Assembly: GCF_036588685.1 (NCBI RefSeq)
Contig: NC_086382.1
Span: 44,206,001-44,270,000, forward strand
Length of the DNA: 64,000 nucleotides
Direction: 5' to 3'
Source of the DNA: Mytilus trossulus
Lineage: Eukaryota
Of this stretch, positions 1-63,557 are shown in pieces. Under the pieces are notes generated by a model that did not search any database, had not been told where the DNA came from, and saw only the letters and a list, made by a program, of their open reading frames with translations. The translations under genes were made by a program, and so were the position numbers. Numbering within the stretch: position 1 is the stretch's first letter; each line of letters starts with the position of its first letter.

Positions 1-1333
1 GATAAAGTTGAAGTCCAATTTACTTTAAACTTAGCACAAGTATTCCCTCTGATTTGATCTTTCTAATTGTAATGCTTAATTATAGTTTTACCTCAATTTC
101 ACGGTCCATAAATTATCTGTGACAAACTGCGTTGGGCTTATAAGGGTATTACACTGCACTGGTATTGTATTTAAATCATAGGTTTTACTGACCGTGCCTC
201 TTAAGTGATGAATGATTGAAAGGGGTTCTGAAAGTGGCCCTGCTTTTTAATGAATACATCGAGAAAGTTTCGTGTAGAGACGGTAAAATATCTGCTATTT
301 TTCTTTTGTCCAAGGTCTACAAACCATCACAAATTAACTTAACTAAATGATTGTTGATTGTTTTTGTTTATTGTTTGTGCTCGTATGCACTCGGGACTAT
401 TAAAAGCCTGATATATTGCATAGATGGTGTCGGTCTATTGGTGAAGACAATTTGTTGCCTTCTAGATTAAACCACAGAACATCTCCTTTTGTTGTTATTC
501 AGAAAATCTATGGGATTCTTGAAATTGTAATTTTGTGGGGAATGTAATCGTATTTTTTATAATCACATTCTGGTTTGAAATTAAAACATGTGTATATTTT
601 TTTTTTAAAAGACAAGAAAGTAAAATGATTTAAAATTAACAATGACGCCAAACTTTAAGAAATGTATCAGTTATATCTGTGTGCATGTTTTTCCTTGAAA
701 AGCTTGCTTGATTTAAGGATTTATTTTTTCGATTAATACCTTCTCTCCTCTGTAACGAAAAAAACAACAAAACAATTAACACAATAAAAACAAATAAAAA
801 GCACTTTAATTTAACCAGCTGAAAATATGCCTTTGATGATGGATGTTAACGGCTAATCAAGACATTTATTAAAACAAGTTCGTCTAGTCGCACATGCATT
901 GATTTGGTACACGAAATTTTCATATCAAATATGACAAAGCCTTACAAAGCTTTTATATGAATAAAGCTTGGTGGTTTGAAAATTAACTTGTTAATTTGCA
1001 ATTCCGTTGTTTGATAGAGATATTTTCTCGTGGAATTTGAGGATTATAGAACCCAAAAATGTCCTGTGTGTATCATTCGATTCTTAATTTCGTTGATTAA
1101 TCTATTCATTACTGTCATAATTCGTAACCATCATTTGACAATAGTTTTTGGAATGATAGGACAATTGATCTACGAGGCCTATACAAGTGCTATTCTTATA
1201 GCTATAATGTCTTTTGATATCAAATATAAGCAAGATTTTTCATTTACAGTCCATCGCTTACACCCATTTGATTAGTTAAAAATGCTGCTTTTCTTTTTAA
1301 TAGTTATCAAAGGTACCAGGATTATAATTTAAT

Positions 1334-1377
1334 ACGCCAGACGCGCGTTTCGTCTACAAACGACTCATCAGTGACGC
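1334..1377 (-). ncRNA. Minimal type I hammerhead ribozyme
   Basis: GCGUCA-CUGAUGA-GUC(GUUUGUA)GAC-GAAA-CGCGC-GUC^UGGCGU: complete core, stems I and II, palindromic short stem III. Predicted cleavage between 1340 and 1339. Confidence 0.9.
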
Positions 1378-1689
1378 TCAGACCAAAACAGTTAAAAACC
1401 CAAACAAATACAAAGTTGAAGAGCATTGAGGACCCAAAATTCCAAAAAGTTGTGCCAAATACGGCTAAGGTAAGCTACTCCTGGGCGTAGGAAAATCCTT
1501 AGTTTTTCGAAATATTCAAAGGTTTGTAAACAGAAAATTTATAAAAATGACCATATAATTGATATTCATGTCAACACCGAAGTGCTGACTACTGGGCTGG
1601 TGATACCCTCGGGGACGAAACGTCCACCAGCAGTGGCATCGACCCAGTGGTGTTAATAGTTATCAAAGGTACCAGGATTATAATTTAAT

Positions 1690-1733
1690 ACACCAGACGC
1701 GCGTTTCGTCTACATACGACTCATCAGGGACGC
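1690..1733 (-). ncRNA. Minimal type I hammerhead ribozyme (weakened stem I)
   Basis: Core CUGAUGA/GAAA/GUC intact. Two stem I substitutions (GCGUCC/UGGUGU), including the pair next to the core. Confidence 0.8.
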
Positions 1734-2045
1734 TCAGACCAAAACAGTTAAAAACCCAAACAAATACAAAGTTGAAGAGCATAGAGGACCCAAAATTCCA
1801 AAAAGTTGTGCCAAATACGGCTAAGGTAATCTACTCCTGGGCGTAGGAAAATCCTTAGTTTTTCGAAATATTCAAAGGTTTGTAAACAGAAAATTTATAA
1901 AAATGACCATATAATTGATATTCATGTCAACACCGAAGTGCTGACTACTGGGCTGGTGATACCCTCGGGGACGAAACGTCCACCAGCAGTGGCATCGACC
2001 CAGTGGTGTTAATAGTTATCAAAGGTACCAGGATTATAATTTAAT

Positions 2046-2089
2046 ACGCCAGACGCGCGTTTCGTCTACATACGACTCATCAGTGACGC
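2046..2089 (-). ncRNA. Minimal type I hammerhead ribozyme
   Basis: Intact core and stems; cleavage site exactly 356 nt from the previous one. Confidence 0.9.
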
Positions 2090-2562
2090 TCAGGCCAAAA
2101 CAGTTAAATACCCAAACAAATACAAAGTTGAAGAGCGTTTTAAGTCATGCATCTGACAAATTGATTGAATGTGGTTTTAAGGACGCATCAGACCAAACTA
2201 TAAATATTTACATGAAGCTAATGTGTATCAATTTTATCCGAACCATGACAAAATATGGAACATTGTCAATTTTTTATATCATAATTTTACGTTTATTTTC
2301 AGCAACCACTTTCTAAATCATTAAAGCTTGACGGAAAACATTGATTTTAAACATTTTCGTTACTATTTGAATGCTAAATTCATGAAATTGTAGAGAAACG
2401 AAAGACGTTACTATATGTGAAGATGTCAATGTTTTGTATAGCTATTTCTACGTAGCCACGTGTCCTTGAAGTGTACGTGAAATAAAGACCAATACAGCAA
2501 TCAAAGGGTTTGCTCGTATACATTCAAAACAAAACATAAAATTACACAGGTATATTGCATTG

Positions 2563-2568: not shown

Positions 2569-2580
2569 CGGATATTATAT

Positions 2581-5500
2581 TTAGGAATTTGAAGCCATCA
2601 CGAATTCCATCCAGCTTTTGTACACACCAATTCGAGTGTACACGCTTGGACGACTTCCTGGACATCCACTCTGGCCCCAGGATGTTACACCAGCCAGTTG
2701 ACCAGAACAAACCATTGGTCCTCCACTGTCTCCCTAATGATAAATAAAGATGATGAAATATAATGGAGGGGTTAAAGAGTATAGATGTATTTATAGTAGA
2801 CTGTGGACAAATGAAAATGCATTGTATAAAAAAATAAAATAAGTAACATCTACACTTACTTAACACACATGTCTTATGACTAATGTTTCTCTCTTAATAT
2901 CTTCAATAAACGTTTGTCGTTTATTAAACTCTTTGAATATTGATGAATGTAAAATCAGATAAATTTCATGCAAACAATTTCTCAGTAAAGAAACAATTTA
3001 ATCCAACTAAAAACTATGACACGCTGAAATATATATATATAAAAAGCTTCATATAGAAACTTAATCAGTACCTATGTAAGAATATGCATCACTTACGTTG
3101 CAAGCACCGTAACCAGTTCCTTGGAATATACAAATATGGCCGTCAAGTATGTTGTTGCCAGTCCAATAGTTTTTGCACTCACTGTTTCTTAGAACTTGCA
3201 TGCTTAATGCTTTCAAATTAGTGGGTAAACCGCCTAGAAAATAAAAAAAATGACAATTTCATACAAGAGACGTACTAGAGAAACATTATTATAGAATGGT
3301 CATACAGACGAGTTCCAGAGCTGTCTCAAAATTGTCAGTATCCAATCAATTTTATATTATATATTTAAAGAACATTCACTAAGAGCATGTGGACCTTTTC
3401 TAAGGAACAATGGACTTATCCCACAAGTTCTGCCAGATTTTGTTTTCGAAATGTACTAACATGTTCCACAAGTTGTGCCAGACTTTGTTTTAGTTATTTG
3501 CTTACAGGTTTCACAAGTTCTGCCAGACTTTGTTTTAGTTATTTACTTACATGTTCCACAAGTTCTGCCCCACCCAGTGATTTCACATGTCTGGCCAGCA
3601 AACTCGTCAGGACTTCCTGTTGCCAAGGTAATGGCTGAAATACTTCCGGTTAATGACAAACTGGATGACATTTTCATCAATGCAATGTCATTTGGGAATG
3701 TTCCAGATCCTGAGTTGTAGTTTTCGTGCTACAAAAAAACAGTTTATAAAAGGGTTACATTTCGCTTTTTTCACAATTCCAAAATGCAATGTAATGATGC
3801 TTCTTATATACAAAATTTTGTGGGTTTTCAGTAAATTGTTTTTCAGATTATTTTTTAAATGTTTGTACTACGATCTGTTTTACAAATCAAATATCATGAG
3901 AATATATTACAAAGGAATTTTTTGTGACAATTTGATAACATTTACATATCATTATTTATTTACTTATTAGCTTTCATAACAGAATGCAGACATTATATGA
4001 ATAATATTTCAGAATGACTTATAAATTATTGCATGTATAAGACTTGGGATCCCATAGCTTACATATTATGCCCGATGATTATATTCGGACCCAATTTCAA
4101 ATAGTCCATCATGACATATCGAATTTTTTTCATGTTTATGTTGAGGGGTCTGTGATGCCTAACACGTATTAAGTGAAAGTATCAGGATATTAGTTATATA
4201 TGTTCATTTTAGATATTTTAATTATCACAAACACGTTTTTAAAGGTTGGCCAGATTCACTGTAGTGTCGTATATATGTTCATATACTTCTTCATTTTTGG
4301 TACTGAAAAGTCTTGCAGTTTACTTTTATTTTTATACCTTATATATGTGATAAAAATTATAAACATTATTGTCGACTCTAACAATATAATGTAATGGTGG
4401 AGATTTTTATACTTAACATTAGACTGATTGGTAAAATCTCTAAAAAAAAAAATCAAGCCTTGTATCTTACCTTCTCTTCATTTGTAGGAAAATCATTTGG
4501 GGAAAAGCAATCGCATGGAGACCGTGTATATTTAAAACGGGATTAGAAGGCGAGGTTTCCTATAATGTCAAAATATCACTGTGTAACTAATAATACACAA
4601 CTGTGTATAGGGGGATATATAAAAAAGAAGATGTGGTATGATTGCCAACGAGACAACTATCCACAATAGACCAAAATGACACAAACATTAAATACTATAG
4701 GTCACCGTACGGCCTTCAACAATGAGCAAAGCCCATACCGCATAGTAAGCTATAACTGTAGTTTTGTCAATACTAGACAAACACGTATTTTACCCTAATT
4801 GATTAAAGAAATAAATGATCAGAATATTACCGATACGATGAGCTCTATACTTCTTGTAGTGCCACCACTAGCATGAGCTGAAGATCCTGCTCGTATCCTG
4901 TAGTCTTGTCTGAATACAGAGAGAGAAAAAATATGTATTTTATTATCTATCAGCAATATGGGAGAGCAAAATGTGGTTTCATATCACTGGTGGTCTTTTA
5001 CATGTTCTAACTATATGAAACACACTACAAAGGAACCTACAACTAAAAGTCTTATAACAAAGTGTTTTGCTAAATACAAGTGGTTACGTTAGAAGGAATA
5101 ACTCTATAAATTCCAAAATTGATTTCATATTTTCCTCTTTGTTATCACCAAATTAACCTTAGAGCCTGTTGTGTGGATCGGTGGTTACCTCAAACCACTC
5201 CGGAATCGACCAATCATGAAAAACTGACCTTCAACAAATAGTCAATGGTGTCAGTGTGGCGTTGAACATAAAATAATCCATTTGCTGAGCTGTACAAGTA
5301 TATTAGTTTTTTATCTTTGCAATACGCCACAAAACATGGCTTGAATATTGATAATTATTTACTTGTAAAACAATGGCAAAACAAAATAAAAGAACATGGA
5401 GACCGAAAAACCCAAATATAATCCGTTTGGAAACGTTTTTTGAAAAATGTCAAGAAAGATTAAGTGTTAACCGATACTTAGAAATATGTTGAAAATGAAA

Positions 5501-7784
5501 GCGCTAAATCAAATATAGATACTAAGTAGGTGATTGTTGTTCTTGAAAAAACGCATTTGACCATCCACCAGTCCTTGCAGTCATTCAATGATCAGTTCTT
5601 CATTACTTGAATTATATATATCAGTAGATCTTGATGTGGGCATATAAGTTAAAAAAAAATTCTGTTATCACAATGTATCTATACACTTACGGTCTAGAAC
5701 TGTCGACACAATGTGCAGCCGTTACAATCCAGTCAGCATTCACAATGGCACCTCCACAAATATGGCTATTACTTCTTTGTAGGGACACTTGATGAGGGTG
5801 CTGGGAAATTGTTGTATCTTCACCACCGACGATTTTCCCTTTCACATCATCGACCTAGAATGATAAAATATCAAAATTGATAATAATATAGGGTTATTGC
5901 ATGAATATAAGGGAATATTGTCCCGAGTAGAATTTTATATTGCACCAGCTTGCGAGTCATGATTTTTTGAAGATTCATTGTACTAGTGCAATATTGGAAT
6001 TTATTGCACGCTAACTTTTTGTTACTTTCTATGGGAAATATTATATTGCTATGTAATAATAATTATTGATGCATTAGTTGTATTAACAATCGGAGGGTTG
6101 TCAACATGTGAATTCACATACTTAGCCTTTCGGTCCGGACATAATAAAGTGCGGAATTATGTGCCTATCATAACAATAATAATAAGATATCAAAATTTAT
6201 AATAATAATGATAAAATATCAAAATTTATCAAAATAATGATAAAATATCAAAATTTATAATAGTTATAATAAAATTTCAAAATTTATAGAATAACTATAT
6301 CTATTTATACATAAGTTGTCGGAACAATCTGAGGGTTGTCAACATATACATACACATACTATTTCTTTGTGTCCAGACAAAATAGAGTGCGAAAGTGCGG
6401 CAGTATGTGCCAAATTCTTTCTCATTCTTAAGGTCATATTAATCTATCTTTTCTATGTTTCCCATTATACTTATTGCGTTATGTTCTAGCACCCCACTAT
6501 TCTCTATGCTTGATTTTATGTCTATTTTTTATTTGTATTTGTCCTTTTTAAAACCAATTTTCAAACCCCATCCAACAGTTGCAAAGAGGAGTTTCAATGA
6601 TAACTGGGGTTTTTTTTCACATCAGGATCAATTTTCCAAAAGACTATTAATCTTTACTGTTACATGTAAATATATCACCAAACGAAAAACGCATAACGAC
6701 GGATGAAAATCATAAGTTTGACAGAAATGTTAGCAAATTTTGAGACTTATTCTAACACAAGTGTGATGACATCGTTGATTAAAACAAATAGCCTGTAGTT
6801 AAAATTAGCGATGTCCTCCTACGCAAAGTTTGAGACCAAATGACACAGAAATTAACAACTACTTGTATAGGTCACCGTACGACCTTGAACAATTAACAAT
6901 GCCCATACCGCAATAGTCAGCTGTAAAAGGCCCCGAAATGACTGTTTATAATTTAATACTATATAAACAGTAAAGAATGTGACACCTTTTTTAGACTTCG
7001 ACCCTGAGAGTGAACCAACTACATGCAAAATTGACTCTATTTCTTTAAAAAAAAAAAAAAAAGGAGATGTCGCATGATTGCTAACGAAACAGCTGTCCCC
7101 AAAATTATACCCAGTTATTTATAAACAAGAAAGCTTACCGGCCATGTGTCTCCCCTTTCTACACTTTCTATCAGCTCTTTCGCTGGTTGCCATATGTCAA
7201 CAGCAGAGACTGTAATAATAAATAAAAAGTAAGAAATGAGATAAATTATTTACAACAAACCAAAAAGACACAACGCGCAATGATAATTCACAGTTAGTTG
7301 CTCATTTTTGTAAAGTTAATAATATTTATAATTTATTTTATTAGAATAATACTTGATTCCAAAAGTAGCATGTAGAGATAACTGGATAACTTTATAAAAT
7401 GTTAGACAAATCAATTATATATGCACCATATCACATACAAATACGAGTAGCCTTCTTCTTATTTTAGCCCACTTTATATAATAAATTTTAAGTTACAATT
7501 CACCAAAAATGTATTTACCCACTTCCAATCAGATACATTTTTTTTATTAAACTTCAAAAGGCAAAATGAAGCATCTTTAATGTATTTTTTTATTGTATAA
7601 ATGTATAAATACCATCAAAATTGTTCATATCAATGAATGAAATGACCTAATTTTAGAGCTTTTTTAATATATTCGGGTAACATATATATGAAGCACCAAG
7701 ACAAATGTAATAGACTAGAATAAATAAAGGAAGAAAAAACATACCAGCTACAATCAGTGTAAACACAAGTACTGAGGCTCCCAT
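2581..7784 (-). CDS. Secreted S1A serine protease, chymotrypsin/elastase-like (copy 1), 7 exons, 273 aa
   Basis: Exons 7784-7745, 7209-7139, 5854-5691, 4909-4831, 3728-3551, 3233-3097, 2733-2581. All introns are GT..AG with compatible phases; total 822 nt. Signal peptide [16 protein letters not shown], activation site VDDVKGK|IVGG, catalytic motifs TAAHC, NDIAL, GACNGDSGGP. The S1 pocket is G189/G216/S226 (no Asp189), so it is not trypsin-type. Confidence 0.95.
3421..3569. repeat. 45-bp minisatellite spanning the exon 5/intron 5 junction (copy 1, ~4 units)
   Basis: Minus-strand unit GGCAGAACTTGTGGAACAT|GTAAGTAAATAACTAAAACAAAGTCT. Confidence 0.9.
4621..4755 (+). repeat. Abundant interspersed repeat (GAAGATGTGGTATGATTGCCAA...GGCCTTCAACAATGAGC family)
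   Basis: Further copies at ~6830, 8310, 10820, 18250, 20460, 21940, 23460, 45960 and 56592 (+), and 58100-58391 and 63680-63955 (-). Confidence 0.85.
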
Positions 7785-10494: not shown

Positions 10495-10670
10495 TAGGTA
10501 CCAGGCTATTAATCAATACGCCAGACGCGCGTTTCGTCTTCATAAGACTTATCAGGGACGCTCAGATCAACATAGCTATAAAGACAAACAAGTGCAAAGT
10601 TGAAGAGCATGTATGACCAAGAATTCCAAAAGGCTGTGTCAAATACGGATAAGGTAATGCATGCCGTGGA
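10495..10670 (-). mobile_element. Degenerate retrozyme fragment (356-bp family)
   Basis: Similar to 1313-1480; hammerhead core mutated to CUGAUAA (10518-10561). Confidence 0.75.
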
Positions 10671-15647: not shown

Positions 15648-16087
15648 AATTTTACTCCATTAACTGAAATAAAGAACGGGTAAAACAAGAGAATGACGTA
15701 ACAACAATGTTTTAAATGAAGCTAATGTGTTTCAATATTGTCCAAACAATGATAAAATTTGGAACAATGACAATTTTTGAAACACAATTTTGCGAGATTT
15801 TTTTAGCAAACACATTTTCAATAATGAAAGCTTGACGGAAAATATTGACTTTAAATGTTTTCGTTACTTTTTTAATTCGAAATTGTAGAGAACGTGAAAC
15901 GTTACTATCTGTGAAGCTATCAATGACAAGTTATCTTGTTTAGCTCTTTCCACGTAGCCATCTTTCTCCTGTCTTGAAACAAAACGTGTACGTGAAATAA
16001 AGACCAAAGAATCAATCAAAGGGTTGGCTTGCATACATTTAAAACAAAAAACTCAAGTATAGTGCATTGTTTATTCGGAAATAATAA

Positions 16088-19000
16088 TTAGGAATTTGAA
16101 GCCATCACGAAGTCCATCCAGCTTTTGTACACACCAATTCGAGTGTAAACGCTTGGACGACTTCCTGGACATCCACTCTGGCCCCATGATGTTACACCAG
16201 CCAGTTGACCAGAACAAACCATTGGTCCTCCACTGTCTCCCTAATGATAAATAAAGATGATGAAATATAATGAAAGTGATAAATAGTATAAATATATTTA
16301 TAGTAGACTGCGGACAAATGAAAATACATTGTATAAAAAATAATATAGCATCTACACATATTGAACACACATGTCTTATTCTAATGTTTCTCTCTTGATA
16401 TCTTACAATATATTATCATGAAGCGTTTTTTTTTATTAAACACCTTGAATATTGATAAATGTCGAGGCCTATAACTTTCGTGCTAACAATTTCTCAGTAA
16501 AGTAACAATTTAATCCACATAACAAATATGAAACGCATATACAGCTTCATACAGAAACTTAATCAGTACCTATATAAGAATATGCATCACTTACGTTGCA
16601 AGCACCGTAACCAGTTCCTTGGAATATACAAATATGACCGTCAAGTATGTTGTTGCCAGTCCAATAGTTTTTGCACTCACTGTTTCTTAGCACTTGCATG
16701 CTTAATGATTTTAAATTAGTGGGTAAACCGCCTGGAAAATAAAAATTGACAATGTCATACAATAGACGTACTAGAGAAACATTATTATAGAATGGTCATA
16801 CAGATGAGTTCCACAGCTGCTCAAAATTGTCAGTATTCAATCAATTTTATTAAATATATTTTAAGATCATTCAATAAGAGCATGTGAACCGTTTCTAAAG
16901 AACAATGGACTTATCCAACCAGTTCTGCCAGATTTTGTTTTCGAAATGTACTAACATGTTCCACAAGTTCTGCCAGACTTTGTTTTAGTTATTTACTTAC
17001 ATGTTCCACAAGTTCTGCCAGACTTTGTTTTAGTTATGCACTTACATGTTCCACAAGTTCTGCCAGACTTTGTTTTAGTTATTTACTTACATGTTCCACA
17101 AGTTCTGCCAGACTTTGTTTTAGTTACTTGCTTACAGGTTTCACAAGTTCTGCCAGACTTTGTTTTAGTTATGCACTTACATGTTCCACAAGTTCTGCCC
17201 CATCCAGTGATTTCACATGTCTGGCCAGCAAACTCGTCAGGACTTCCTGTTGCCAAGGTTATGGCTGAAATACTTCCGGTTAATGACAAACTGGATGACA
17301 TTTTCATCAATGCAATGTCATTTGGGAATGTTCCAGATCCTGAATTGTAGTTTTCGTGCTACAAAAAAAGTTTATATAAGGGTTACACTTTTTTCACAAT
17401 GCCAAAATGCAATGTAATGATGCTTGTTATATACAAAGTTGTGTGGGTTTTCAGTAAATTGATTTTCAGTTTAATTTTTAAATGTTTGTACTACGATCTG
17501 TTTTACAAATCAAATATCATGTGAATATATTTCAAAGGAATTTTTTGTGATCGCAAGAGCCAGTAGGATAACATTTACATATCATTATTTATTTACTTAT
17601 TAGCTTTCATAACAGAATTCAGACATCATATGAATAATATTTCAGAATGACTTACAAATTATTGCATGTATATGACTTGGGATCCCATAGCTTACATATT
17701 ATGCCCGATGATTATATTCGGACCCAATTCCAAAAAGTCCTTCATGACATATCGATATTTTTTCATGTTTATGTTGAGGGGTCTGTGCTGCCTAACACGT
17801 AATAAGTGAGAATATCAGGATATTAGTGATATGTGTCCATTCTAGATATTTTAATTATCACAATCACGTTTTTAAAGGTTGACCAGATTCACTGTAGTGT
17901 CGTATATATGTTCATTTACTTCTTTAATTTTGGTACTGAAAAGTCTTGCAGTTTACATTTTTTTGTTACCTTATATATGTGACCAAAATTATAAACATTA
18001 TTGTCGACTCTAACTATATAATGTAATGGTGGAAATTTTTATATTTAACATTAGACTGATTTGTCAAATCTCTAAAGAAAAGATAAGCCTTTCATCTTAC
18101 CTTCTCTACATTCGTAGGAAAATCATTGGAGGAAAAGCAATCGCGTGGAGACCGTGTATATTTTAAACGGGATTAGAAGGCGAGGTTTCCTATAATGTCA
18201 AAATATCACTGTGTAACTAATAATACACAACTGTGTATAGGGGGATATATAAAAAAGAAGATGTGGTATGATTGCCAATAAGACGACTATCCACAAAAGA
18301 CCAAAATGACACAAACATTAACAACTAGAGGTCACCGTACGGCCTTCAACAATGAACAAAGTCCATACCGAAAAGTAAGCTATACATGTAGTTTTGTCAA
18401 TACTAGACAAACACGTATATTACCCTGATTGATTAAAGATATAAATGATCAGAATATTACCGATACGATGAGCTCTATACTTCTCGTAGTCCCACCACTA
18501 GCATGAGCTGAAGATCCTGCTCGTATCCTGTAGTCTTGTCTGAATACAGAGAAAAAATAAATATGTATTTTATTATCTATCAGCAATATGGGAGAGCAAA
18601 ATGTGGTTTCATATCACTGGTGGTCTTTTACATGTTCTAACTATATGAAACACACTACAAAGGAACCTACAACTTAAAGTCTTATAACAAAGTGTTTTGC
18701 TAAATACAAGTGGTTACGTTAGAAGGATTAACTCTATAAATTCCAAAATTGATTTCATATTTTCCTCTTTGTTATCACCAAATTAACCTTAGAGCCTGTT
18801 GTGTGGATCGGTGGTTACCTCAAACCACTCCGGAATCGACCAATCATGAAAAACTGACCTTCAACAAATAGTCAATGGTGTCAGTGTGGCGTTGAACATA
18901 AAATAATCCATTTGCTGAGCTGTACAAGTATATTAGTTTTTTTATCTTTGCAATACGCCACAAAACATGGCTTGAATATTGATAACTATTTACTTGTAAA

Positions 19001-21414
19001 ACAATGGCAAAACAAAATAAAAGAACATGGAGACCGAAAAACCCAAATATAATCCGTTTGGAAACGTTTTTTGAAAAATGTCAAGAAAGATTAAGTGTTA
19101 ACCGATACTTAGAAATAGGTTGAAAATGAAAGCGCTAAATCAAATATAGATACTAAGTAGGTGATTGTTGTTCTTGAAAAAACGCATTTGACCATCCACC
19201 AGTCCTTGCAGTCATTCAATGATCAGTTCTTCATTACTTGAATTATATATATCAGTAGATCTTGATGTGGGCATATAAGTTAAAAAAAAATCTGTTATCA
19301 CAATGTATCTATACACTTACGGTCTAGAACTGTCGACACAATGTGCAGCCGTTACAATCCAGTCAGCATTCACAATGGCACCTCCACAAATATGGCTATT
19401 ACTTCTTTGGAGGGACACTTGATGAGGGTGCTGGGAAATTGTTGTATCTTCACCACCGACGATTTTCCCTTTCACATCATCGACCTAGAATGATAAAATA
19501 TCGAAATTGATAATAATATAGGGTTATTGCATGAATATAAGGGAATATTGTCCCGAGTAGAATTTTATATTGCACCAGCTTGCGAGTCATGATTTTTTGA
19601 AGATTCATTGTACTAGTGCAATATTGGAATTTATTGCACGCTAACTTTTTGTTACTTTCTATGGGAAATATTATATTGCTATGCAATAATAATTATTGAT
19701 GCATTAGTTGTATTAACAATCGGAGGGTTGTCAACATGTGAATTCACATACTTAGCCTTTCGGTCCGGACATAATAAAGTGCGGAATTATGTGCCTATCA
19801 TATCAATAATAATAAGATATCAAAATTTATAATAATAATGATAAAATATCAAAATTTATCAAAATAATGATAAAATATCAAAATTTATAATACTTATAAT
19901 AAAATTTCAAAATTTATAGAATAATTATATCTATTTATACATAAGTTGTCGGAACAATCTGAGGGTTGTCAACATATGCATACACATACTATTTCTTTGT
20001 TTCCATACAAAATAGAGTGCGAAAGTGCGGCATTATGTGCCAAATTCTTTCTCATTCTTAAGGTCATATTAATCTATCTTTTCTATGTTTCCCATTATAC
20101 TTATTGCGTTATGTTCTAGCACCCCATTATTCTCTATGCTTGATTTTATGTCTATTTTTTATTTGTATTTGTCCTTTTTAAAACCAATTTTTTAACCCCA
20201 TCCAACAGTTGCAAAGAGGAATTTCAATGATAACTGGGGTTTTTTTCACATCAGGATCAATTTTCCAAAAGACTATTAATCTTTACTGTTACATGTAAAT
20301 ATATCACCAAACGAAAAACGCCTAACGACAGATGAAAATCATAAGTTTGACAGAAATGTTAGCAAATTTTGAGACTTATTCTAACACAAGTGTGATGACA
20401 TCGTTGATTAAAACAAACAGCCTGTAGTTAAAATTAGCGATGTCCTCCTACGCAAAGTTTGAGACCAAATGACACAGAAATTAACAACTACTTGTATAGG
20501 TCACCGTACGACCTTGAACAATTAACAATGCCCATACCGCAATAGTCAGCTGTAAAAGTCCCCGAAATGACTGTTTATAATTTAATACTATATAAACAGT
20601 AAAGAATGTGACACCTTTTTTAGACTTCGACCCTGAGAGTGAACCAACTACATGCAAAATTGACTCTATTTCTTTAAAAAAAAAAAAAAAAAGGAGATGT
20701 CGCATGATTGCTAACGAAACAGCTGTCCCCAAAATTATACCCAGTTATTTATAAACAAGAAAGCTTACCGGCCATGTGTCTCCCCTTTCTACACTTTCTA
20801 TCAGCTCTTTCGCTGGTTGCCATATGTCAACAGCAGAGACTGTAAAAATAAATAAAAAGTAAGAAATGAGATAAATTATTTCCACAAACCAAAAAGAAAC
20901 AACGCGCAATGATAATTCACAGTTAGTTGCTCATTTTTGTAAAGTTAATAATATTTGTAATTTATTTTATTAGAATAATACTTGATTCCAAAAGTAGCAT
21001 GTAGAGATAACTGGATAACGTTATACAATGTTAGACAAATTAGTTATATATGCACCATATCACATACAAATACACGTAGCCTTCTTCTTATTTTAGCCCA
21101 CTTTATATAATAAATTTTAAGTTACAATTCACCAAAAATGTATTTACCCACTTCCAATCAGATACATTTTTTTTTATTAAACTTCAAAAGGCAAAATGAA
21201 GCATCTTTAATGTATTTTTTTATTGTATAGATGTATAAATACCATCAAAATTGTTCATATCAATGAATGAAATGACCTAATTTTAGAGCTTTTTGAATAT
21301 ATTCGGGTAACATATATATGAAGCACCAAGACAAATGTAATAGACTAGAATGAATAAAGGAAGAAAAAACATACCAGCTACAATCAGTGTAAACACAAGT
21401 ACTGAGGCTCCCAT
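16088..21414 (-). CDS. S1A serine protease copy 2, 7 exons, 273 aa
   Basis: Exons 21414-21375, 20839-20769, 19484-19321, 18539-18461, 17358-17181, 16731-16595, 16240-16088. Exon sizes match copy 1; catalytic triad intact; no stops. Confidence 0.95.
16917..17199. repeat. 45-bp exon/donor minisatellite (copy 2, ~7 units)
   Basis: Same unit at 45-nt spacing. Confidence 0.9.
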
Positions 21415-24530: not shown

Positions 24531-24889
24531 TAATAAAATCAACGGTACCAATTTTGTTGCACCAGATGCGCATTTCGACAAAAAATGTCTATTCAGTGAT
24601 GCTCGTGGCCAAAATATTTGAAGTCCAAAGCTTATATAAAAGATGAAGAGCTATAATCCAAAAGGTCCAAAAAGTATCGCCAAATTCGTGAAAAGAATCA
24701 GAGCTTTGCATGAGGGAGATACATTCCTTAATTTATAATAATTTTTAATACTTTGTAACAGCAAATTTTAATAACACAAAAAATCCGTATTTTCATGCCA
24801 GTACCGAAGTACTGGCTTCTGGGCTGGTGATACCCTCGGGGACTTATAGTCCACCAACAGAGGCATCGACCCAGTGGTAGTAATAAAAT
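24531..24889 (-). mobile_element. Second retrozyme family, one 350-bp unit with 9-bp terminal redundancy
   Basis: TAATAAAAT at both ends; absent from the paralogous site near 11862. Hammerhead at 24559-24602: GCAUCA-CUGAAUA-GAC..GUC-GAAA-UGCGC-AUC^UGGUGC, with G8 changed to U. Confidence 0.8.
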
Positions 24890-27425
24890 TACATAACAAT
24901 CTTTTTTCCGTTCCTTTTTTAAGATATAATACTTTATATTTGTGTAATGCATGTGTATATTATTGGGAAGAACATCTTCCATAGATTTTTAAAATTTCAA
25001 ATAGTTATAATGGTGAAATATAATCTCTTTTTGAGGTAACCATGGCAACAATCTGCTTTTATTTGATACAGATATTGGGAAAAAATGGGAGGGTGAAAAT
25101 GTCACAAAAGTCTAAAAAGAAAAGGAAAATGGTCTAAAAGGAGAAATTTAAATCCATTACAGTTACACCTTTCATGAAACCATAGACATTTATCTAGAAA
25201 AAGATCCAAAAAATCATATGCAATTCTGCTCGTTTTTCCATAAAATGTACTTAAAAGGTCCAGGGTGAAATTTTTGTTGAAAAACACTACACTAATTTCT
25301 GGACCTGTGGGCGGTAAGGATGTTAAAAAAATGGACTGTCAAACAGACAAATGGCCTATAAAAATGCTAACACAATTTAAATGTTTAAATTAACCCACTT
25401 GGAAGGCTATATTATTCTTCAACTATCTCAAAATCAATTTTATTGTACAAAACCTTTTATATTTAAAAATAATCCCAATGACCAAGAAAACTAAACTTGT
25501 AACTGTGTATTGCTACCATAGGTTTTATAATCGGTGTCTTTATGTAATGATTGAAAGACGTTTTGAAAGAGACCATGTTTGAAATGAATACATCGAAGAA
25601 GTTCTGTGTAGAAACGGGTAAATAACTCTTCTATCTATAAATGATTGTTGATTGTTTTTGTTTAGTGTTTATGCTCGTATGCACTCGTGACTATTGGGAG
25701 CCCGACAAGATTAAACCGCACATCTCCTTTTGTTCATATTCAGATAGGATTCTTGAAAGTGTTATTTATACTGGGAATTAATAATTAAACACATTCTCGT
25801 ATGAAATAAAATCAATTATTAAAAAGCGTTAACAATAGCATTAAATTTGAAACACATCAAAAAGAAACAAAACAGCCAGGAGTTTTCCACTTGATAGAAA
25901 CTCTGCATACGGCTAATCGTTACATTTACCCAAAAAGTTTATCCAGTCGAACATGCGTTTTTTGTACACATATTGATTTTAATGTGGCAAATCTTCTTAT
26001 TTGCTTATAGCTTGGTGGTTTGAAACTTCACTTGTTGACAGATAATTCCGAGGTTTGATAGAGATATGTTCTCATGGAATTGCATGATTACAGAACTCGA
26101 AGGTTTTCTGTGTTTATCATTCGATTATTAATATTGATCCCTGCCATATTTCGTAACCAATATATGCAAATAGTTTTTGGAATGGCAGGACAATAGGATT
26201 ATCATGCCTATACCAGATATATAAGTAATATGTCTTTTGATACCAAACATAAGCAAGATTGTTCATATACAGTTCATCGCTTACACCAATTTTATTTGTT
26301 AAAATGCTGCTTCTCTGTTTAGTAATTTGGTAAATCGATTAATTGTGTTTTAAGGATGCATTCGAATAAACAGTATTATTTTCCATAAGGGAAACAGTCC
26401 ATTCTGTAAAATATTGGACTGTTATAGTTGAAAATGATGTTAGGAAGAATAAGAGTAACACCACAGGTCAATTTTGATAACCTAAAGATGAACGAGGATA
26501 AATCGTTTGAAAAAAGAAATTCATAAAAGCAACAAAAACAAAACTTACAACAAGCGTAATCAACTTATTGAATTAGTGCTAAAAGAGACAACCCAAAAAC
26601 ATAAGAAAAATGGCGAGGATATAAGTATTGGTAATGTTAAAAATCAATTTGAAAGTGGTTTTTTTTTTTCCCTCAAAAAAACGTTTTGATGAGTGACAAA
26701 CTATTGTATTGGTCGTTGACTTTAATCAAATGTTTTCTTTAATTGTCATTTGTTTTTTGGTTGTATTTTTGATAACATTATGAAAACAATTAGAGTAATT
26801 AATAGGTTTTTTTTTTATTTCAGTGATTGAACTATCATGTTAATAAAACATTGAATTGAATTGTACCTGTAAGAATCAGTTATGCTACCTTTAGCTGTCC
26901 CATATGTTTAAGAAAGAGGAGAGCTATTCTTCAAAATATTGGACAGCTGAAGGTAACATAATGGTTTCTTACAGGTAAATTTTAGTCCATTAACTGAAAT
27001 AAAGAACGGGTAAAACAAGAGAATGACGTAACAACATTTTTTTAAATGAAGCTAATGTGTTTCAATTTTGTCCAAACAATGATAAAATTTGGAACAATGA
27101 CAATTTTTGAAACACAATTTTACGAGATTTTTTTAGCAAACACATTTTCAATAATGAAAGCTTGACGGAAAATATTGATTTTAAATGTTTTCGTTACATT
27201 TTTAATTCGAAATTGTAGAGACCGCGAAACGTTACTATTTGTGAAGCTATCAATGACAAGTTATCTGGTTTAGCTCTTTCCGCGTAGCCATCTTTCTTCT
27301 GTCTTGAAACAAACCGTGTACGTGAAATAAAGACCAAAGAATCAATCAAAGGGTTGGCTTGCATACATTTTAAACAAAAAATAGAATAACACAAGTATAC
27401 TGCATTGTTTATTCGGACATTATAA

Positions 27426-33822: not shown

Positions 33823-35009
33823 CAAGGTGTAAAATGAAACTTGCACGTTGTGCATGACACTTGTGTTTTCCTTAATCACATATAAACACTTTAAAATTGA
33901 AATTTATAGACTCTGGACAAAAGCTTGACACACTGTAAATTACAGCTTAACACAGTTTATAGTTTGAATTTAGTAATTTATTGTGAAAACATAACAGGTG
34001 AAATTTATCATGTAAAATTATTTTTCTAACTTATTTATTTATACGCCCATCTGTCGTATCGCACAGTAAAACGGTCATGGAGTCATTTTCATAAAGTTGC
34101 AGCTCAGTTCGGAGAAGAATAACCAGAACAGAAAACACTTGGTGTGGAAATAAATTTGCGCGTTTTGTATTGTACATCGGACAGTTTCAGAGAAAACAAC
34201 TTTTATGAGGTCAAAAGCATAATTGAAATGTTACCTATATCATGTAAGTGCACCTAAATAACTGCAATTGCATGTCAGGTTATGCATGTCTACACATAAA
34301 ATGACAATGAAGTTTGACATTTCCATATTTCATATAACCACAGTTTCTACAGTGTATGTTTTTGAGTGGTTTTCATTTCTAACGACATATATTTAGGTTA
34401 CATCATATGCAGAAATATATTAAATAGACATATAGCAAAACAGAGATGAAGCGAATATAAGAGTAGCATTGCCACAACGCGAAATACTTTGTGCACATAT
34501 TTTGTATCAATTATCTGTAAATATAGGAATTTTTTGTTTGCTGGCAACATTATATGAACTGAAATCAGGTGATTCAACTCTATATGCAAGATATGCCTGA
34601 AGATCAATCGCTTTTATGTACAAATTTTCAATAAATAGTATTCCATTATATAGGGAATTCATAGTGTTATATTAGGGTATATAGGGGAATATCTGAGACA
34701 AGTGCTTGTTAGAGAACTTTAACGAGAGTGCACTTAATTTGCGTTTGACTTCCTAGGAAATAGGACACATCTGGGGTTTTTTCGTTCTTTGTCGTTTTCT
34801 ACCTTGCATATTGCATTTCATACTTTTTACTATGATTGTTGATTGAAAAACAGCGTCGGAATACACCAATAGGTCGAAGAAAAGTAAAAGTACCATAGGA
34901 AAAATCAAAAAACAACGAAAAGAAAAAATAGAGACTGTGCAACACGAACCCACCAAAAAAAGTTGGTACTGCTTTGTTTCATTAACCAAACAATGGCCGA
35001 CGTAGATAC

Positions 35010-35990
35010 AAGTATCTTTCTAAAGGAGAGTTAAATCCTACTTTGTAAAGAATCACTCTGATTCGAACAAAATATTCTCTGAAACTGACATTATAAAGAT
35101 GCTTGATTTTTTTATTGACAACATATTTGTAACATTTTGACGATGTGTTTTTCAATAATAGACTGTCGGCATTCCAATGGGAACCAATTGTGCCCCTCTT
35201 CTTGTCGACTTGTTCCTCCCTTTAACTATACTTTCCGCTGTATAGATTGTGTTCTCTCACTTCAAAATGTATTGACTATCTTGAACGTATATATCCCATC
35301 GAACAAGAGAAATAGGATGCAACATATAGAGTTAAGTCTGCCTCATATTTTGACTTACATCTATAAATTGACAATGATGGTCGGTTGAAAACAAAACTTT
35401 ACGACAAAAGAGATGATTCCAATTGTGAACTTTCCATTTCTATGTAGCAACATTCCAGCAGCGCCTGTATACGGAATATACGGAGCATATATCTCCCAAT
35501 TATAATACGATATTCCCGTGCTCGTATTTCCTATCATTATTTTCTTAATAGAGGGTTGCTTCTCACAAGGAAGCTATTGAACCAAGAGTTCCGATTGATA
35601 AAGTTGAGATCATCTCTTCGTAATTTAACGGATGCCATTACGAGCTGGTTGGCCGTTATTGAATAACCGTTTCACAGATGATATCGGATATGTTCCTTAT
35701 GTAGTAACTACAACCCCCTTTCCTTTTCACGTCTGTGACCTACCGAATTAGACTATTTACCAGGTTTGTAATAACATGAGCAACACGACGGTACCACATA
35801 TGGAGCTTACCCTTTCAGAGCACCTGAAATTAAACCCAGTTTTTTGGGGGTTCGTGTTGCTAAGTCTATGTTATGTCTTGTGTACTATTATTTGTCTGTT
35901 TGTCTTCTTCTTTTTTAGCAATGGCGTCGTCAGTTTATTTTCGATCTATGAGTTTGACTGTCCCTCTGGTATCTTTCGCCCATCTTTTTT
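35010..35990 (+). mobile_element. Decayed Penelope-like reverse transcriptase fragment
   Basis: IKMLDFFIDNIFV, VGIPMGTNCAPLLVDLF, FNYTFRCIDCV (decayed YIDD), KLYDKRDD, VNFPFLCSNIPAAP; many stops. Confidence 0.75.
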
Positions 35991-35999: not shown

Positions 36000-36890
36000 T
36001 GCTCCAAATGTATCTGGCATCCGTCTTGTTAATCATGAAAGAACTAATAATAAGTATGTTGATGAATCCTCTATGTTACAATCATTGAAAAGGGAACGAC
36101 GGGATGGTGGTTACGATAACTGGAACATATCATGATCATGTGCGACACAGATATCTCATAAAGGTTAACATCGTAATTGAGATGCTGTCCGTAAAACCTC
36201 GAGGGATAACTTCAACTTTGATTCTCAGAGTCGTTTGAATAATAGTATCCTTGTAAAAAGCAATCCACTATCAAGGAACTTGGTAAAGAAAACACAACCT
36301 CTGACGATATATACTTCATGTACATGCATACTTCATATGCAATCATACAAGATGCTAGAATGCAGCTTCATAGAATTGTAAAGTCACAATTGTGAAACTT
36401 AAAGTCGTTCATTTGTTCTGAACATACCATCTTTGTCAAATTGAAGAGGATATATAGTAAGGATATGAGACAGACATAACTGTATCTGTTGTATCCTTAA
36501 TTTCAATTTCGATTGGAAAGATGCGTCCACAATAGACACCAACATATGAAATAACTATCTTTTTTAGCGGAACTTGAAGTAAAGAATCATGTTAAATTAT
36601 TTTCATACTTTCTGAGAAGGTCTGGTATGAAAACATTATGTCATACATGAATAAAGGTGCAAGTCGAAAAAGGGGAATCATTTGGTTCCAATTCCCATAA
36701 GATTGCTGATTTATTGTTGAAAAAAACATCCTCCAAACGTAATCAAAATGTTGTCAATGAAAAGCAAGCTTCAGTTTCAAAGAATGTTGTGTCTAAATCA
36801 GTGTGTGTTTCTTTCTTTCATATCCATAGCGGCGTTCGGTCACAAGTTGTCTTATTTTTGATATTCAAATACGGTGATTAGTTATACTTT
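36000..36890 (-). mobile_element. Highly decayed inverted copy of the same Penelope-like RT
   Basis: The reverse complement gives FIDNILITFGGCFFQQ followed by a decayed MG(I)GTK segment; convergent with the 35010-35990 copy. Confidence 0.55.
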
Positions 36891-37864
36891 TTATTGCATT
36901 GGCTAATGGCTTTTTTTTTAAGAAATTAATGTTAGAAATGTAAGGAACTATATGTTTTTTTTACGCATTCACAATTTGTTTTGATCCGACGTTATCGACG
37001 TCTTGACAACGCCTATTATTGTATGACGTCAGAGAGTGAAATAACCACGTTTATCATATACTTAGACTAAATAACATATGATTTTTACCGTATGATAATA
37101 GCATAGAATTAACGTATATTCCATATTTTTTCGAATTGGTGCTTAGCGGGCTGATATGAAAAGTTTTTCACATGCTTCGCTTGTTATCACATGTCTTTCC
37201 GTAACGTTATCACATGGCATTCCGGTAATACTCGGCAAATTCCGAAAAATACACCTCAATACTACGTTTTCAGTGAAAAACATTACAAAGTAGTGCATAA
37301 AACAATTATTTGGATACTGGAAAGTTTATTGTGTAAAATAATATGAAAAATAAACAAAAACAAAAACAAACAAATTATTCAATAAATGCATTTTTTTAAA
37401 GTTTCAAACATAATTTAGAAAGCTACTTTTAAAAAGGTTGACTTTTCCAAACAATGTTCATTATTTTTATTGTTGATTTTTTTTTGTCGATTCGTCCATG
37501 TTAAAATGTTGGGTTTTTTTCTGTTGAGGCATATGATAGAAAGATTCATATCGAATGTACAAAAATTTGGGTCCGACGTCAGTGGACTTTTCACTCTTTG
37601 AACTTCTTTTCTAAAAGGATCAATATATGAATCTGTTATTTTTCTTTACTGTTGAAGCATATGATAAAAAGATCATAACATGTCATTTTCATATCGCATG
37701 TATTATCAGCCCTCGGTCAATATCAGCCCTCGAGCTATGCGGCTCTTGGGCTAATATTGAACCTAGGGCTGATAATACATGCGATATGAAAAATGCCATG
37801 AAATAATCTGATATTATCATATACTTAGACTAAATAACATATGATTCTTACCGTATGATGATAG

Positions 37865-38109
37865 TGTTATATGGTACGTTATAGTGTTTGTTACGTTATC
37901 AGATTAGATCGTTGATGAGGGAGACCGGAAGTGAGATTGTCGTCAGGACGAAAGCGTGTGGCAGATTTAAAAAGGACAATTAGTTGTTACTGGACCAGAT
38001 GAGTTAAGTTGAACATTTACTAACATTCTCAACTGTTATCTTGTTGTACATATTCAATTACAAATGTAAATAATAAACTGATTGATACGTTTACTTCTTG
38101 TGTGTTAAA
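37865..38109 (+). repeat. 5' LTR (245 bp)
   Basis: TGTTAT...GTTAAA (terminal CA mutated). Three substitutions versus the 3' LTR by my count. Confidence 0.95.
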
Positions 38110-38110
38110 G

Positions 38111-38129
38111 TGGTGACAGCGGTGTGGAT
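38111..38129 (+). promoter_or_regulatory. Primer binding site, tRNA-Leu type
   Basis: TGGTGACAGCGGTGTGGAT, complementary (with one extra T) to a tRNA-Leu 3' end ..AUCCCACCGCUGYCACCA; 1 nt after the LTR. Confidence 0.8.
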
Positions 38130-38991: not shown

Positions 38992-39262
38992 AACTATAAA
39001 TGCTATTTTGTATCCTTTGGTAACAAGTTTTATGTTCAGTTAAGGTATTAAGAATATGTGTTTGTTCTCTTGATACATGTTGAGCCGCAGGTAGTAGCTC
39101 ATACATTGTAGTCAAGTTTTGTTTGAATAGAAACTGATCTTTATGCATATATATTTATATAAAAAGATTTTCATTATAAATATATCTAAACCTTAATTTC
39201 TTATTTTATATTGCTCTAAAGACAAACTTATAAACCTAGATATTTTTTGAAGAATTATAATA

Positions 39263-60360: not shown

Positions 60361-60714
60361 GTTGTTAAATTATTTTCAGGTTCCTATAAAAATAAAGTAT
60401 TTGGAATGAACAGAACTATAGACAGCTGGGTGGAAGAACGTTAAAGTGTGTCCAACAGAGAGTATTTCACGAAAATCAGGACGAAAACTTAATGTGGTAT
60501 GCATAGCAAAAGAATTTTTTGAAGTGTGTTTCTGGTGCATTTGTCAGAAAACAAACTTCACATAAAAGTCTGAATAAGCTTGTAAGTTAACTTAAGCTAC
60601 ATAGCTAACTTACTAGTTCAAATCATTTTCCTGTTAAACAGTTAAATCAAGGTTTGAGTTCTGTGTTTAAATTTTTTTGCCGTTTAGAAGTTAAATTCTA
60701 TATTGCTTTATTCT

Positions 60715-61612
60715 CTAAACCGACATTATCAAAATGCTTTATTTCCGGATCGGCAAACTTTTGTTATGTTCGGAGGACGCGTTTTTCAACAAACTATCAT
60801 TAGTCCTATGGGAACCAAGTGTGCCCATCTTCTTGTCACTTGTTCCTTTATTCTTATGAAGCCGACTGGCGACTTCATACATGAACTTCTTAGGAAAAAA
60901 GAAGAGAAGTTAGCAATATCCTTAAACTTTACTTTCCGCTATATAGATAATGTTCTCTCACTTAATAATTCAAAATTTGGTGGCTATGTTGAACGCATCT
61001 GATCTATCCCACCGAACAAGAGATAAAGGATACAATGGATACAGTTTAGTTTTCCTCATATCTTGGCTTACATCATCGATTGAAAACAAAACTTTACAAC
61101 ATAATGGATGTTATCTTCCCAATTGTGAACTTTCCATATCTATGTAGCAAATTCCAGCAACACCCGCATACGGAGTATATATCTCCCAATTGATACGATA
61201 TTTCAGGGCTTGTATTTTCTATCATGCTTTCCTAACAGGAAGATATACAAAAGAATTTCAACAGATGAAGTTGAAATCATCCCTTCGTAAATTGTACAGA
61301 CGCCATCACGAGTTGGTTGACCGTTATGGAATATCCGTTTCACATATGATATAGGTTATGTTCCTTATGTCGCCACTACAAACCCATTCCCTTTTCACGA
61401 ATTTGACTATTTAGCGGGTGTGTTATAACATGAGCCACACTCCGGGTGCCGAAGGTAGAGCCTTCCGAAGTACCTGAGATAACCCCCAGTTGTTAGTGGG
61501 GACCATGTTGCTTAGCATTTAGTTTTCTATGTTGTGTCTGATGTTCTTTTATTTGTCAGTTTATTTTTTTTATTTATGAGTTTGAATGTCTCTCTGGTAT
61601 CTTTCACCCTCT
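60715..61612 (+). mobile_element. Decayed Penelope-like RT fragment
   Basis: FGGRVFQQT, PMGTKCAHLL, LNFTFRYIDNVLSLNN, PIVNFP, PAYGVYISQLIRY; same family as 35010-35990. Confidence 0.75.
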
Positions 61613-63557
61613 TGTCCTAAATTATTGTGAAATCTAGCATTTTTAGATAAAATATCTTGAGCTGTTTTATTTTTTCAAATTTAAATCATTGAAATGACCG
61701 GTTACATACTTTTTGGGATCTTTTTAAGATTCCGATACTGAATTTTCTTTTCAAAATGATTTGAAACATGAACACAATATCTTTCAAAAATACTCACAAA
61801 TTATGACAACGTTCAATAATCAGTTACAGCTTCACTTAAAGACGTTTGGAAAAGGTTTAAAAGATTTTAAAAAACTTCTCTATGATAATCAATATTACAA
61901 GAAAATCTCTAAATATTTTAAAGAATAGGGATCATTTTACTCCATTTATCGATCAGATGGTATGTGGTAAAACAAAAAGGTTTGATACTTGGTGAATTTC
62001 TTGAAATAGATATCTAACTATTCTACATTATGCAGATTCAATATCTTATTAAAGTTTTCAGTCTTAGATGAATAATTTTTTTTATTAGTTGTTAGTGGCT
62101 TTGAACTAGCTGTCAGATTACTGCGAGTACTCTCAGGTCTGTTCATTGTGTCTTTTTGTGTCGGGATGAATAAGTAGCCGGCCACGTTCACTTGTATTTT
62201 TGTCCATCTAATGTGTTTTTTATAGTTTTGTCAAACTTAGGTTTTGGGTGTTTGTTGTTTGTTCTTTTGTGGTAGAGCTTTTTGAAGCAAGAGTGACAGG
62301 CAGATGCAGTGTGATTTTGACTGTATGATTTTCAGCTGTGACAAGATAATTATCTTGTTGACTGGAGTCTTTTGACAGGCCTGAAAATAGTCAAATCTGA
62401 TTTCTGAAGAATAGTCTTTATTTACTGCGTTCAATTTGAAAAAGTCATATATAATAACAATATTACATAATAAAATATTAAGCATAACAATGCAGTCAAT
62501 AAAACAGATACAATAATAATCATGGATTATTAATACTATGGATGGAACTGTGAAGTTTCTTACTATTTCACCTTAAACGGTGTGAACTCTAGAGCGTTTG
62601 ACTGGTTTCTAAATTGTGCAGCCTGACATGCATGGGACTTTGCAGTAAACAATTAAACAAATTATAAACTATTCATTTGTTCTCTTTTAACAACCAAATA
62701 TCTCTATAATAATAATGTCGACTTATTCTCAGAAACTTTTACTATTAAAACATGTATTTACAGTATAACATAGCTGAAGGCTATTATTTACAGAAAAGCA
62801 AACAGTTGTAAACAAATTTGCATATTAAGGGGAGATAACTGTGAAAGTTAAATCTTGGGACTGGGACTAGCTCATATACTAAAAATAAGAACATGGGGGA
62901 CTTTATACATATAGCATATAACACAATAAAGGAAGTTCAATAAACACATTTACTTTGAACAGGAAAACTATGTAAACAAACTGGGAATCTTATGAAATAA
63001 GAAAACAAGTGCAACACTGGGCTTTGCAATGGGATAAATAGAGAACATCAGTCTAATAGCTTCTAAGAGCTTTATGTTACCTAACGACTATGAGAACTAA
63101 TGCATAATGCTTTGAATAATAATGTTCTTACACCTACCATTGTTCATAAATAATGGGTAAACTGTAAATTGAGACATATAACTTGCTCATGAAATTGTCG
63201 CGGTAAAACTGGAGTTATCTCCCATATAAAAATTACTTCTGATGAAGCGTGTTCATTTTAGTCTAGTTTTGGCAACTAGTGTTCATTTACAAAAATACTT
63301 AATATGTTTGAAATTAATAAAAACTTTCAAAATATTAACTTGAAAAAGATATATACATATTTAAAATTGACCAACTGGTTTGGCGTCTTTCTCTAACTAT
63401 TGAAAATGATAATTTCTCTTAATAATAATAAATTGGCATAACTCATTGGAATGAGCATTTAGAACTTTTAAATATACATTGCAAAAATGAAATAAATACT
63501 TTGAATCTATAAAGAAATAGATTTTTAAAATAAAAATAAAACTTAGTTTTCACTTAC

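Follow-up and report, generated by a model that had tools for sequence, protein, structure and literature searches.

The three tandem hammerhead ribozymes near the start of the window (the whole stretch of 64,000 nucleotides of Mytilus trossulus DNA analysed here) are part of a retrozyme insertion. We propose, with a probability of roughly 0.7, that this retrozyme is a non-autonomous hammerhead retroelement copied by the RT/GIY-YIG protein of Naiads, a clade of Penelope-like elements. The proposal comes from sequence comparison. More specifically, a domain shared with Naiads points to a candidate partner whose ORFs are intact in this genome. At stake is the identity of the reverse transcriptase that moves animal retrozymes, and of the target that it recognises.

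The hammerhead array and its insertion site

Three CUGAUGA...GAAACGCGCGUC cores on the minus strand end at 2052, 1696 and 1340, and this spacing of 356 bears out the tandem hammerhead array of the original prediction. TRF describes a tandem repeat at 1297-2136 with a period of 356, 2.4 copies and 98% matches; the exact element has 837 bp (1301..2137, minus strand) and consists of 2.35 tandem 356-bp units. It lies between two copies of a 6-bp target-site duplication, TTTTAA, one on the element's 3' side (1295..1300, the last 4 nt of which also fit the element) and one on its 5' side (2138..2143). The array is 5'-truncated at unit position ~269-271, and its 3' end is 39 nt beyond the last cut site. 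This 39-nt 3' tail, running from the cut site to the fixed integration end (1301..1339, minus strand), is repeated at 1657-1695 and 2013-2051. Two paralogous flanks, at ~14.97-15.04 kb and ~26.29-26.37 kb, are 73-85% identical and continuous without the element, as had been claimed, and these empty flanks support the view that the element came in once the local genes had been duplicated. Of 356 sites, 5 differ between the two full units, and calling the insertion recent, as was done before, rests on this 1.4% unit divergence and on 97-99% identical relatives. GC content is 0.38, measured over 1001-2000, and the single stop-to-stop frame of at least 90 aa that overlaps the array is on the opposite strand and runs out of the element. 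The retrozyme identity given in the original prediction is supported by type I hammerheads in tandem ~350-bp units of a dispersed high-copy family.

The last exon of a trypsin-like protease gene, with the GDSGGP motif, is located at 2580..2733 on the minus strand (the PF00089 match is on a paralogous exon). It shares the strand of the array, its stop codon lying ~440 bp upstream, and the gene is a possible source of read-through transcription into the array. There are three trypsin-like serine protease paralogues on the minus strand of the window (2580-5900, 16070-19500 and 27400-30900); they come from local duplications, with blocks 77-96% identical, each having a 45-bp intronic tandem repeat. 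The window also contains a Gypsy-type LTR retrotransposon at 37097-44777, with zinc knuckle, protease, RT, RNase H and integrase in several frames and terminal repeats 88% identical, as well as 28 tandem copies of a 42-bp repeat and a 169-bp dimer (54854-56025 and 58812-59144).

All three hammerheads are of type I, and two are intact. In the Rfam Hammerhead_1 search (RF00163) suggested as a check of the original prediction, the outer copies exceed the gathering score of 34, with 35.8 bits for 2046..2089 (minus strand, cut after C2052) and 34.6 bits for 1334..1377 (minus strand, cut after C1340), but the middle copy (1690..1733, minus strand, cut after C1696) stays under it at 28.5 bits, E 1.1e-4. 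Stem I of the middle copy is damaged: an A>C change at hammerhead position 2.1 (window 1728) leaves a C.U mismatch in pair 2.1-1.1 beside the cut site, and there is also a G.U wobble (1692). The A>C change is private to this copy and found in 0 of 89 other units. The monomer hammerhead fold has an energy of +1.6 kcal/mol in the middle copy vs -4.7 kcal/mol in the outer two, and the middle cut site can still pair six stem I positions with the core of its neighbour. The palindromic stem III that had been claimed is found as the 8-nt palindrome ACGCGCGU in all three hammerheads, with predicted energies of +2.4 kcal/mol as a hairpin and -13.3 as an intermolecular duplex. In constrained folds of two adjacent copies, the double-hammerhead beats two monomers by 12-14 kcal/mol, the unconstrained fold being lower than both; the hammerhead is the minimum-energy fold in none of the three copies.

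Helix III has 2 bp with a 4-nt loop and helix II has 3 bp. Passages of PMC4209133 define the minimal hammerhead (min-HHR) by the lack of helix III and by a long helix II, so the min-HHR of Penelope-like elements is ruled out by the 2-bp helix III and 3-bp helix II. The earlier word 'minimal' has to be withdrawn, since in the terms of those passages these are 'canonical' metazoan type I hammerheads with a 2-bp helix III and a palindromic loop. Cleavage as dimers is possible but not obligatory: passages of PMC7229834 report a kobs of ~0.1/min for a cloned mussel repeat and reserve the dimer requirement mainly for vertebrate retrozymes. The predicted release of 356-nt RNA also needs revision. Because the middle ribozyme is damaged, an array cutting as monomers should, by these models, favour a 712-nt product, and 356-nt pieces would need residual activity or the double-hammerhead fold.

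Retrozyme families, their transcripts and their integration ends

In the 1.3 Gb genome, mostly in ~14 large contigs, a 17-nt hammerhead motif is matched exactly at 24,090 places and its control at 0. There are three related retrozyme families, of 356 bp (the present locus), 350-351 bp and ~364 bp, and in the 350-351-bp family stem III is compensatory, GAAAU-GCGC-AUC. Two further copies with damaged hammerhead cores are found on the minus strand of the window. One is a single unit of the 350-351-bp family (24560..24885, ~71% identical) with the same 5' domain, the other an older 5'-truncated fragment of the 356-bp family with hammerhead and tail (10496..10658). Satellite-like long retrozyme runs of 15 to more than 50 units were noted near the start of contig C1 (G000:C1:113108-118373 and C1:269290-291170).

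Four raw RNA runs carrying the same species label were mapped to one unit, giving 5555, 6192 and 9773 reads from 8.7, 8.3 and 7.3 million records and 3106 reads in the fourth run. Ribozyme-strand transcripts predominate in the family; this holds at the family level only. The mid-unit strand ratio is ~5:1 to 9:1 toward ribozyme-strand RNA in three of the four runs and 1:1 in the fourth, with the strand call presuming the usual first-mate-antisense library. Since most mapped reads are 90-95% alike to the unit and only 61-108 per run reach at least 99%, most of them come from other copies or another species. In the four runs neither a pile-up of read ends nor a coverage dip is seen at the cut site, which reads cross at full depth; short reads of this kind cannot separate circles from tandem transcripts. 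The predicted fold of the complete 356-nt unit is not more stable than those of shuffled sequences (z -0.15), and on this figure a viroid-like rod fold of the whole unit was rejected.

The integration pattern was followed in 39 other arrays, taken from the 40 best-scoring of 2987 candidates and thus a biased sample, together with the array in the window. Among these best 40 of 2987, the closed 3' ends fall at +38 to +48 after the cut site in 32 of 33 arrays, and the closed 5' ends are scattered in 31 of 31, from 25 to 348, with none at +1. Both ends are closed, and the 3' end is canonical, in 29 arrays; T stands at position +40 in 22 of them and at +41 in 26. Duplications of at least 5 nt flank 10 of these 29 arrays vs 3.0 in shuffled pairings (p 0.0004); one of the ten sits in a tandem repeat, and six of the 29 arrays have no duplication. 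From 98 to 420 RNA reads per run leave the unit into many unlike flanks at 1654-1657. No poly(A) tail was found at the retrozyme junctions of the arrays examined. In 91 units the median number of differences is 3 inside one array and 13 between arrays, and 101 non-consensus alleles are fixed array-wide. The 107 within-array variants comprise 66 private ones, 31 shared with other arrays at scattered sites, 7 CpG and 3 reversions.

Fixed 3' ends, random 5' ends, fractional units and junction duplications are the signature of reverse transcription. An excess of copies starting at the cut site is not clear: among 427 pattern matches ~5-7 of 30 inspected are genuine, which gives roughly 70-100 in all, vs 71 uninspected matches of a control pattern shifted 3 nt. 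Linear cleaved monomers were rejected as the main template for want of a clear excess. As the 3' ends are fixed and cut-site starts are not in excess, reverse transcription appears to have a constant internal start, ~40 nt past the cut, and a template that continues beyond it, either a circle or an uncut multimer. Between these two templates we see the chances as balanced.

A structured domain shared with Naiad elements

The original prediction also proposed mobilisation by a Penelope-like RT such as those with remnants in the window. A Penelope-like partner is supported and can be narrowed to the Naiad clade, including the remnants; mobilisation in trans itself is only inferred. Judged by their sequences, the putative autonomous partner and the window remnants are Naiads as passages of PMC8557442 define them (N-terminal GIY-YIG, CxC, DKA). 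The remnants are found on the plus strand at 34956..35988 (5'-truncated and broken, with the 3' part of the RT and the 3' UTR and without the 5' domain, 81-86% identical to a Naiad copy with an intact ORF) and at 60710..61613 (also broken, 76%). A third, more diverged Naiad-like RT remnant of 65% identity lies on the minus strand at 36089-36805. Intact Naiad frames in the genome have 998-1000 aa with the endonuclease at residues 135-174 and the RT at 709-854; the N-terminal GIY-YIG match is weak (PF01541, E 0.03), and the CTC and DKA motifs are visible. In one Naiad family the ORF start is, by eye, nearly identical to published Mytilus consensi. Naiads are described in passages of PMC8557442 as lacking canonical hammerheads. 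A search for CUGANGA..GAAA on either strand found none in four of five Naiad stretches and one loose match in a disrupted part of the fifth (L093).

Retrozyme unit positions 37-107 match the Naiad 5' end with 83-85% identity over 71 nt (E ~1e-16 to 1e-17) in all five Naiad copies that reach the 5' end. No other blastn similarity was found between the unit and the own sequence of these five copies. In each of the five, the Naiad 5' end directly follows a copy of the element's own 3' end, and this head-to-tail junction has 88 exact occurrences genome-wide. At the sequence level, every retrozyme unit reproduces the Naiad head-to-tail junction. The 356-bp family and Naiad have in common the 10-nt motif TGGTAYCTTT, 8 nt ahead of a terminal TT, with a variant in the 350-351-bp family; at the locus it lies within the 39-nt tail at 1309-1318, 1665-1674 and 2021-2030 (minus strand). 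The motif was chosen by eye and is the best 10-mer match in both units (9/10 and 8/10, next 7), and a comparison of the whole 24-nt ends of Naiad and retrozyme does not stand out. Six of 20 Naiad insertions have TT-start duplications of at least 5 nt, a count made without a shuffle control. Thus Naiad and retrozyme have terminal cis sequences in common, in register with the retrozyme's own integration end. We hold it probable, at odds of about three to one, that the Naiad protein is the mobilising partner of the mussel retrozyme, a reading drawn from these sequences.

At the locus the domain is present in two copies on the minus strand, 1589..1651 and 1945..2007, and consists of P1, P2 and a conserved bulged core; the first copy and the Naiad 5' end are 87% identical in 63 nt (E 4e-16). 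It is followed by an 8-bp UUCG hairpin and then an AUG aligned with the first in-frame Met of the Naiad ORF (1567..1589, minus strand, repeated at 1923-1945). The retrozyme AUG opens only 17 codons here and, by eye, 9 codons in the 350-351-bp family. In the predicted fold, an internal loop separates a 7-bp helix from a 6-bp helix, and these are followed by a bulged hairpin whose loop is variable. The z of the domain is -2.1 alone (-1.95 for the opposite strand). Two Naiad families and three retrozyme families were aligned in 14 rows. All 168 cells of P1 and P2 are paired there, against 25-54% in slid controls, and 4 of the 12 pairs have changed on both sides; the rows are related, and shuffle figures are not probabilities. 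The count covers P1 and P2 only, as MAFFT misaligned the core in two rows of the second Naiad family. G.U variants in P1 and P2 occur on the sense strand, and the second Naiad family and the three retrozyme families share the same domain core. Such covariation argues that the shared domain is an RNA structure.

An exact-word search showed that 16 of the 54 published Naiad consensi also begin with the core (GCUGGUGGA ... UCCCCGA), two having one-base variants: three from Acropora, nine from bivalves (one by a less direct assignment), three from hemichordates and one from a fish. The helices flanking the core differ in sequence among these consensi and pair by eye. The domain has no Rfam match at E up to 10. 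An HDV-like ribozyme was rejected on this result and on the HDV helix order, which misfits by eye. Also rejected were a plus-strand hammerhead in the GACGAAACGUC hairpin, where the loop varies freely among families and no Rfam match falls, and a pseudoknot GCUGGU/ACCAGC, which is perfect in the 356-bp family and broken in the Naiad rows and, by eye, in oyster consensi.

Several related repeats were noted in the genome. Another repeat with the domain core has cores 167 bp apart and no hammerhead found nearby (L165, L180), and may be a hammerhead-less non-autonomous Naiad partner. The core of the second Naiad family occurs as seven copies with 131-bp spacing at G000:C12:27544287-27545097, possibly a mini-array from a Naiad 5' end. 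A subfamily of the second Naiad family has a 25-29-nt insert of the retrozyme tail only in its 3' region, spread to several loci (L177:1009-1037, L195, L196, L200). A second Naiad 5' motif, GACGTCG..CCAG followed by TATAAAA, is located ~60-75 nt past the first AUG (L090-L093, L097); it is also visible in published oyster and ark-shell consensi and is not kept by retrozymes.

Mobilisation model, alternatives and known systems

In the mechanism that we propose, the ribozyme strand would be transcribed, for which the evidence is at the level of the family, not of the locus. Hammerheads would then cut multimers to units that are ligated into circles, as published for mussel retrozymes. The Naiad protein might bind the folded domain at unit +48 to +105, the structure that also opens Naiad, and prime directly 5' of it (+39 to +41), using a nick where the target contains TT. 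Running round a circle or multimer would give near-identical units with a constant 3' end, a 5' end at a random place and a TT-start duplication. At the locus, one event would have left 2.35 units, the middle ribozyme having mutated later. By analogy, we slightly favour the domain as the start signal for reverse transcription. According to passages of PMC11167929, cDNA made by the Poseidon protein starts internally at +111 to +118 and needs RNA to +172. That protein requires ~55-60 nt of RNA 3' of the start and cuts or prefers ATT, and its internal initiation is independent of hammerhead cleavage (same passages). A binding site in the domain with priming 5' of it would explain why the own 3' end precedes full Naiad copies. 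A start signal at this place would likewise explain the fixed end of the retrozyme, its tandem form and the value of circles, because a binding element located 3' of the start can be copied only from a circle or an uncut multimer. A signal downstream of the priming site thus suggests a reason for the circle.

A broader proposal, to which we give an even chance, is that a conserved RNA structure, so far undescribed, opens Naiads from corals to fish and is bound by their telomerase-like RT, with cDNA starting upstream. Retrozymes would be minimal circular parasites of this start signal with a separately acquired hammerhead, the circle placing the signal behind the priming site. If this is true, an animal retrozyme would have both its enzyme and its cis signal named, and rolling-circle retro-integration would gain a portable tag of 70 nt. 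The domain is short, covarying, widely conserved and directly mutable as RNA, and its sharing implies that a retrozyme with a hammerhead can rely on a clade that has none.

The retrozyme could instead derive from a Naiad 5' end in which the domain serves transcription, translation or stability, or is a self-processing RNA not yet recognised, with the tail alone setting the 3' end. The domain adjoins the Naiad AUG, which retrozymes keep, its core bases are conserved in sequence, and the 10-nt tail motif is equally distant from the end in Naiad and retrozyme. We regard this as unlikely, since retrozymes encode no conserved peptide in their 17 codons (9 in the 350-351-bp family), the covarying helices with G.U on the sense strand fit RNA rather than a DNA promoter, and self-processing would have to go without an Rfam family at E up to 10 and without a pile-up of read ends at the domain. 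DNA-level duplication or unequal crossover of a single short insertion, satellite-like and with the RNA circle as a by-product, is the least probable of the alternatives. It would also give homogeneity within arrays, and dozens of units at ~355-bp spacing do occur near the start of contig C1, but short arrays are dispersed over many chromosomes, and their constant 3' end, random 5' ends, fractional units and junction duplications speak against it, and so do the 2.35 units between one duplication at the locus.

Another enzyme may have moved the retrozyme in place of the Naiad protein, and we consider this improbable, by a hair less so than the DNA-level route. One version has a LINE as partner, for which the TTAAAA insertion site, which resembles the L1 endonuclease target, would speak, and against which stands the lack of a poly(A) tail. 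The other version has a canonical hammerhead-bearing Penelope-like element with a C-terminal endonuclease, as proposed in Xenopus, where passages of bioRxiv 10.64898/2026.07.22.740005 describe pLTR homology. The genome does contain canonical elements with ORFs up to 911 aa and hammerhead-like cores. However, the domain is present in 0 of 10 long canonical copies, and the retrozyme-like matches in three of these are fragments outside the ORF, unshared within the family. Among 30 GIY-YIG loci (of 615 candidates) 14 are canonical and none has the domain as its own part, and the five canonical 3' ends examined run into TA repeats, unlike retrozyme junctions. At least four canonical Penelope-like families were seen in the genome, with hammerhead-like cores having a variant first base, TA-repeat ends and inverted 5' duplications (L187-L216, L247-L256). 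The Gypsy element of the window was set aside as a partner, as the retrozyme has no LTR structure and a self-blast of the window gave no similarity between the two.

With copying by the Naiad protein as our preferred reading, the retrozyme can be compared with known systems. Passages of Cervera and de la Pena 2020 (PMC7229834) describe ~5000 hammerheads in 350-390-bp repeats of Mytilus galloprovincialis, abundant circles on northerns and RtcB ligation, and name PLEs as a strong candidate partner only; neither the shared domain nor the fixed integration end is described in those passages. The present retrozymes resemble the ones described there in ~350-bp tandem units with a type I hammerhead each, GC below 50%, thousands of copies, transcription and two related hammerhead families. 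No tested feature differs, the likeness being one of description and not of clone sequence. The locus is an ordinary copy of this published non-LTR kind, and the element probably belongs to the same family as studied in 2020. With Naiad (Craig et al. 2021, PMC8557442, in the passages cited) it has in common the 5' structured domain, a similar 10-nt motif near the 3' end, partial-tandem 5'-truncated insertions and short TT-start duplications. In contrast to Naiad, the retrozyme has a canonical hammerhead and no ORF, and its 290 nt outside the junction are unrelated. The words 'stem-loop', 'hairpin' and 'RNA structure' are absent from the main text of PMC8557442.

Vertebrate retrozymes (passages of bioRxiv 10.64898/2026.07.22.740005) are likewise non-autonomous, with a Penelope-like partner and homology limited to element termini. 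Xenopus retrozymes are linked there to pLTRs, other organisms being stated as unexamined, whereas the mussel retrozyme is homologous to the 5' leader of a clade that lacks hammerheads, so that the ribozyme would not have been inherited from the pLTR of the present partner. As in Poseidon PAc (passages of PMC11167929), the cDNA start would be downstream of the hammerhead cut, RNA 3' of the start is needed in that system, and the ATT target is similar. PAc belongs to another clade, its binding region is inside the ORF and structurally undefined, and its start is ~85-92 nt past the cut vs ~40 in the retrozyme. Our literature search, with Repbase, Dfam, subscription journals and supplements outside it, found no retrozyme-Naiad link and no Naiad 5' RNA structure. 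Relative to the literature found, the locus itself is of a known kind; what is new is the domain shared by retrozyme and Naiad and the structure at the Naiad 5' end.
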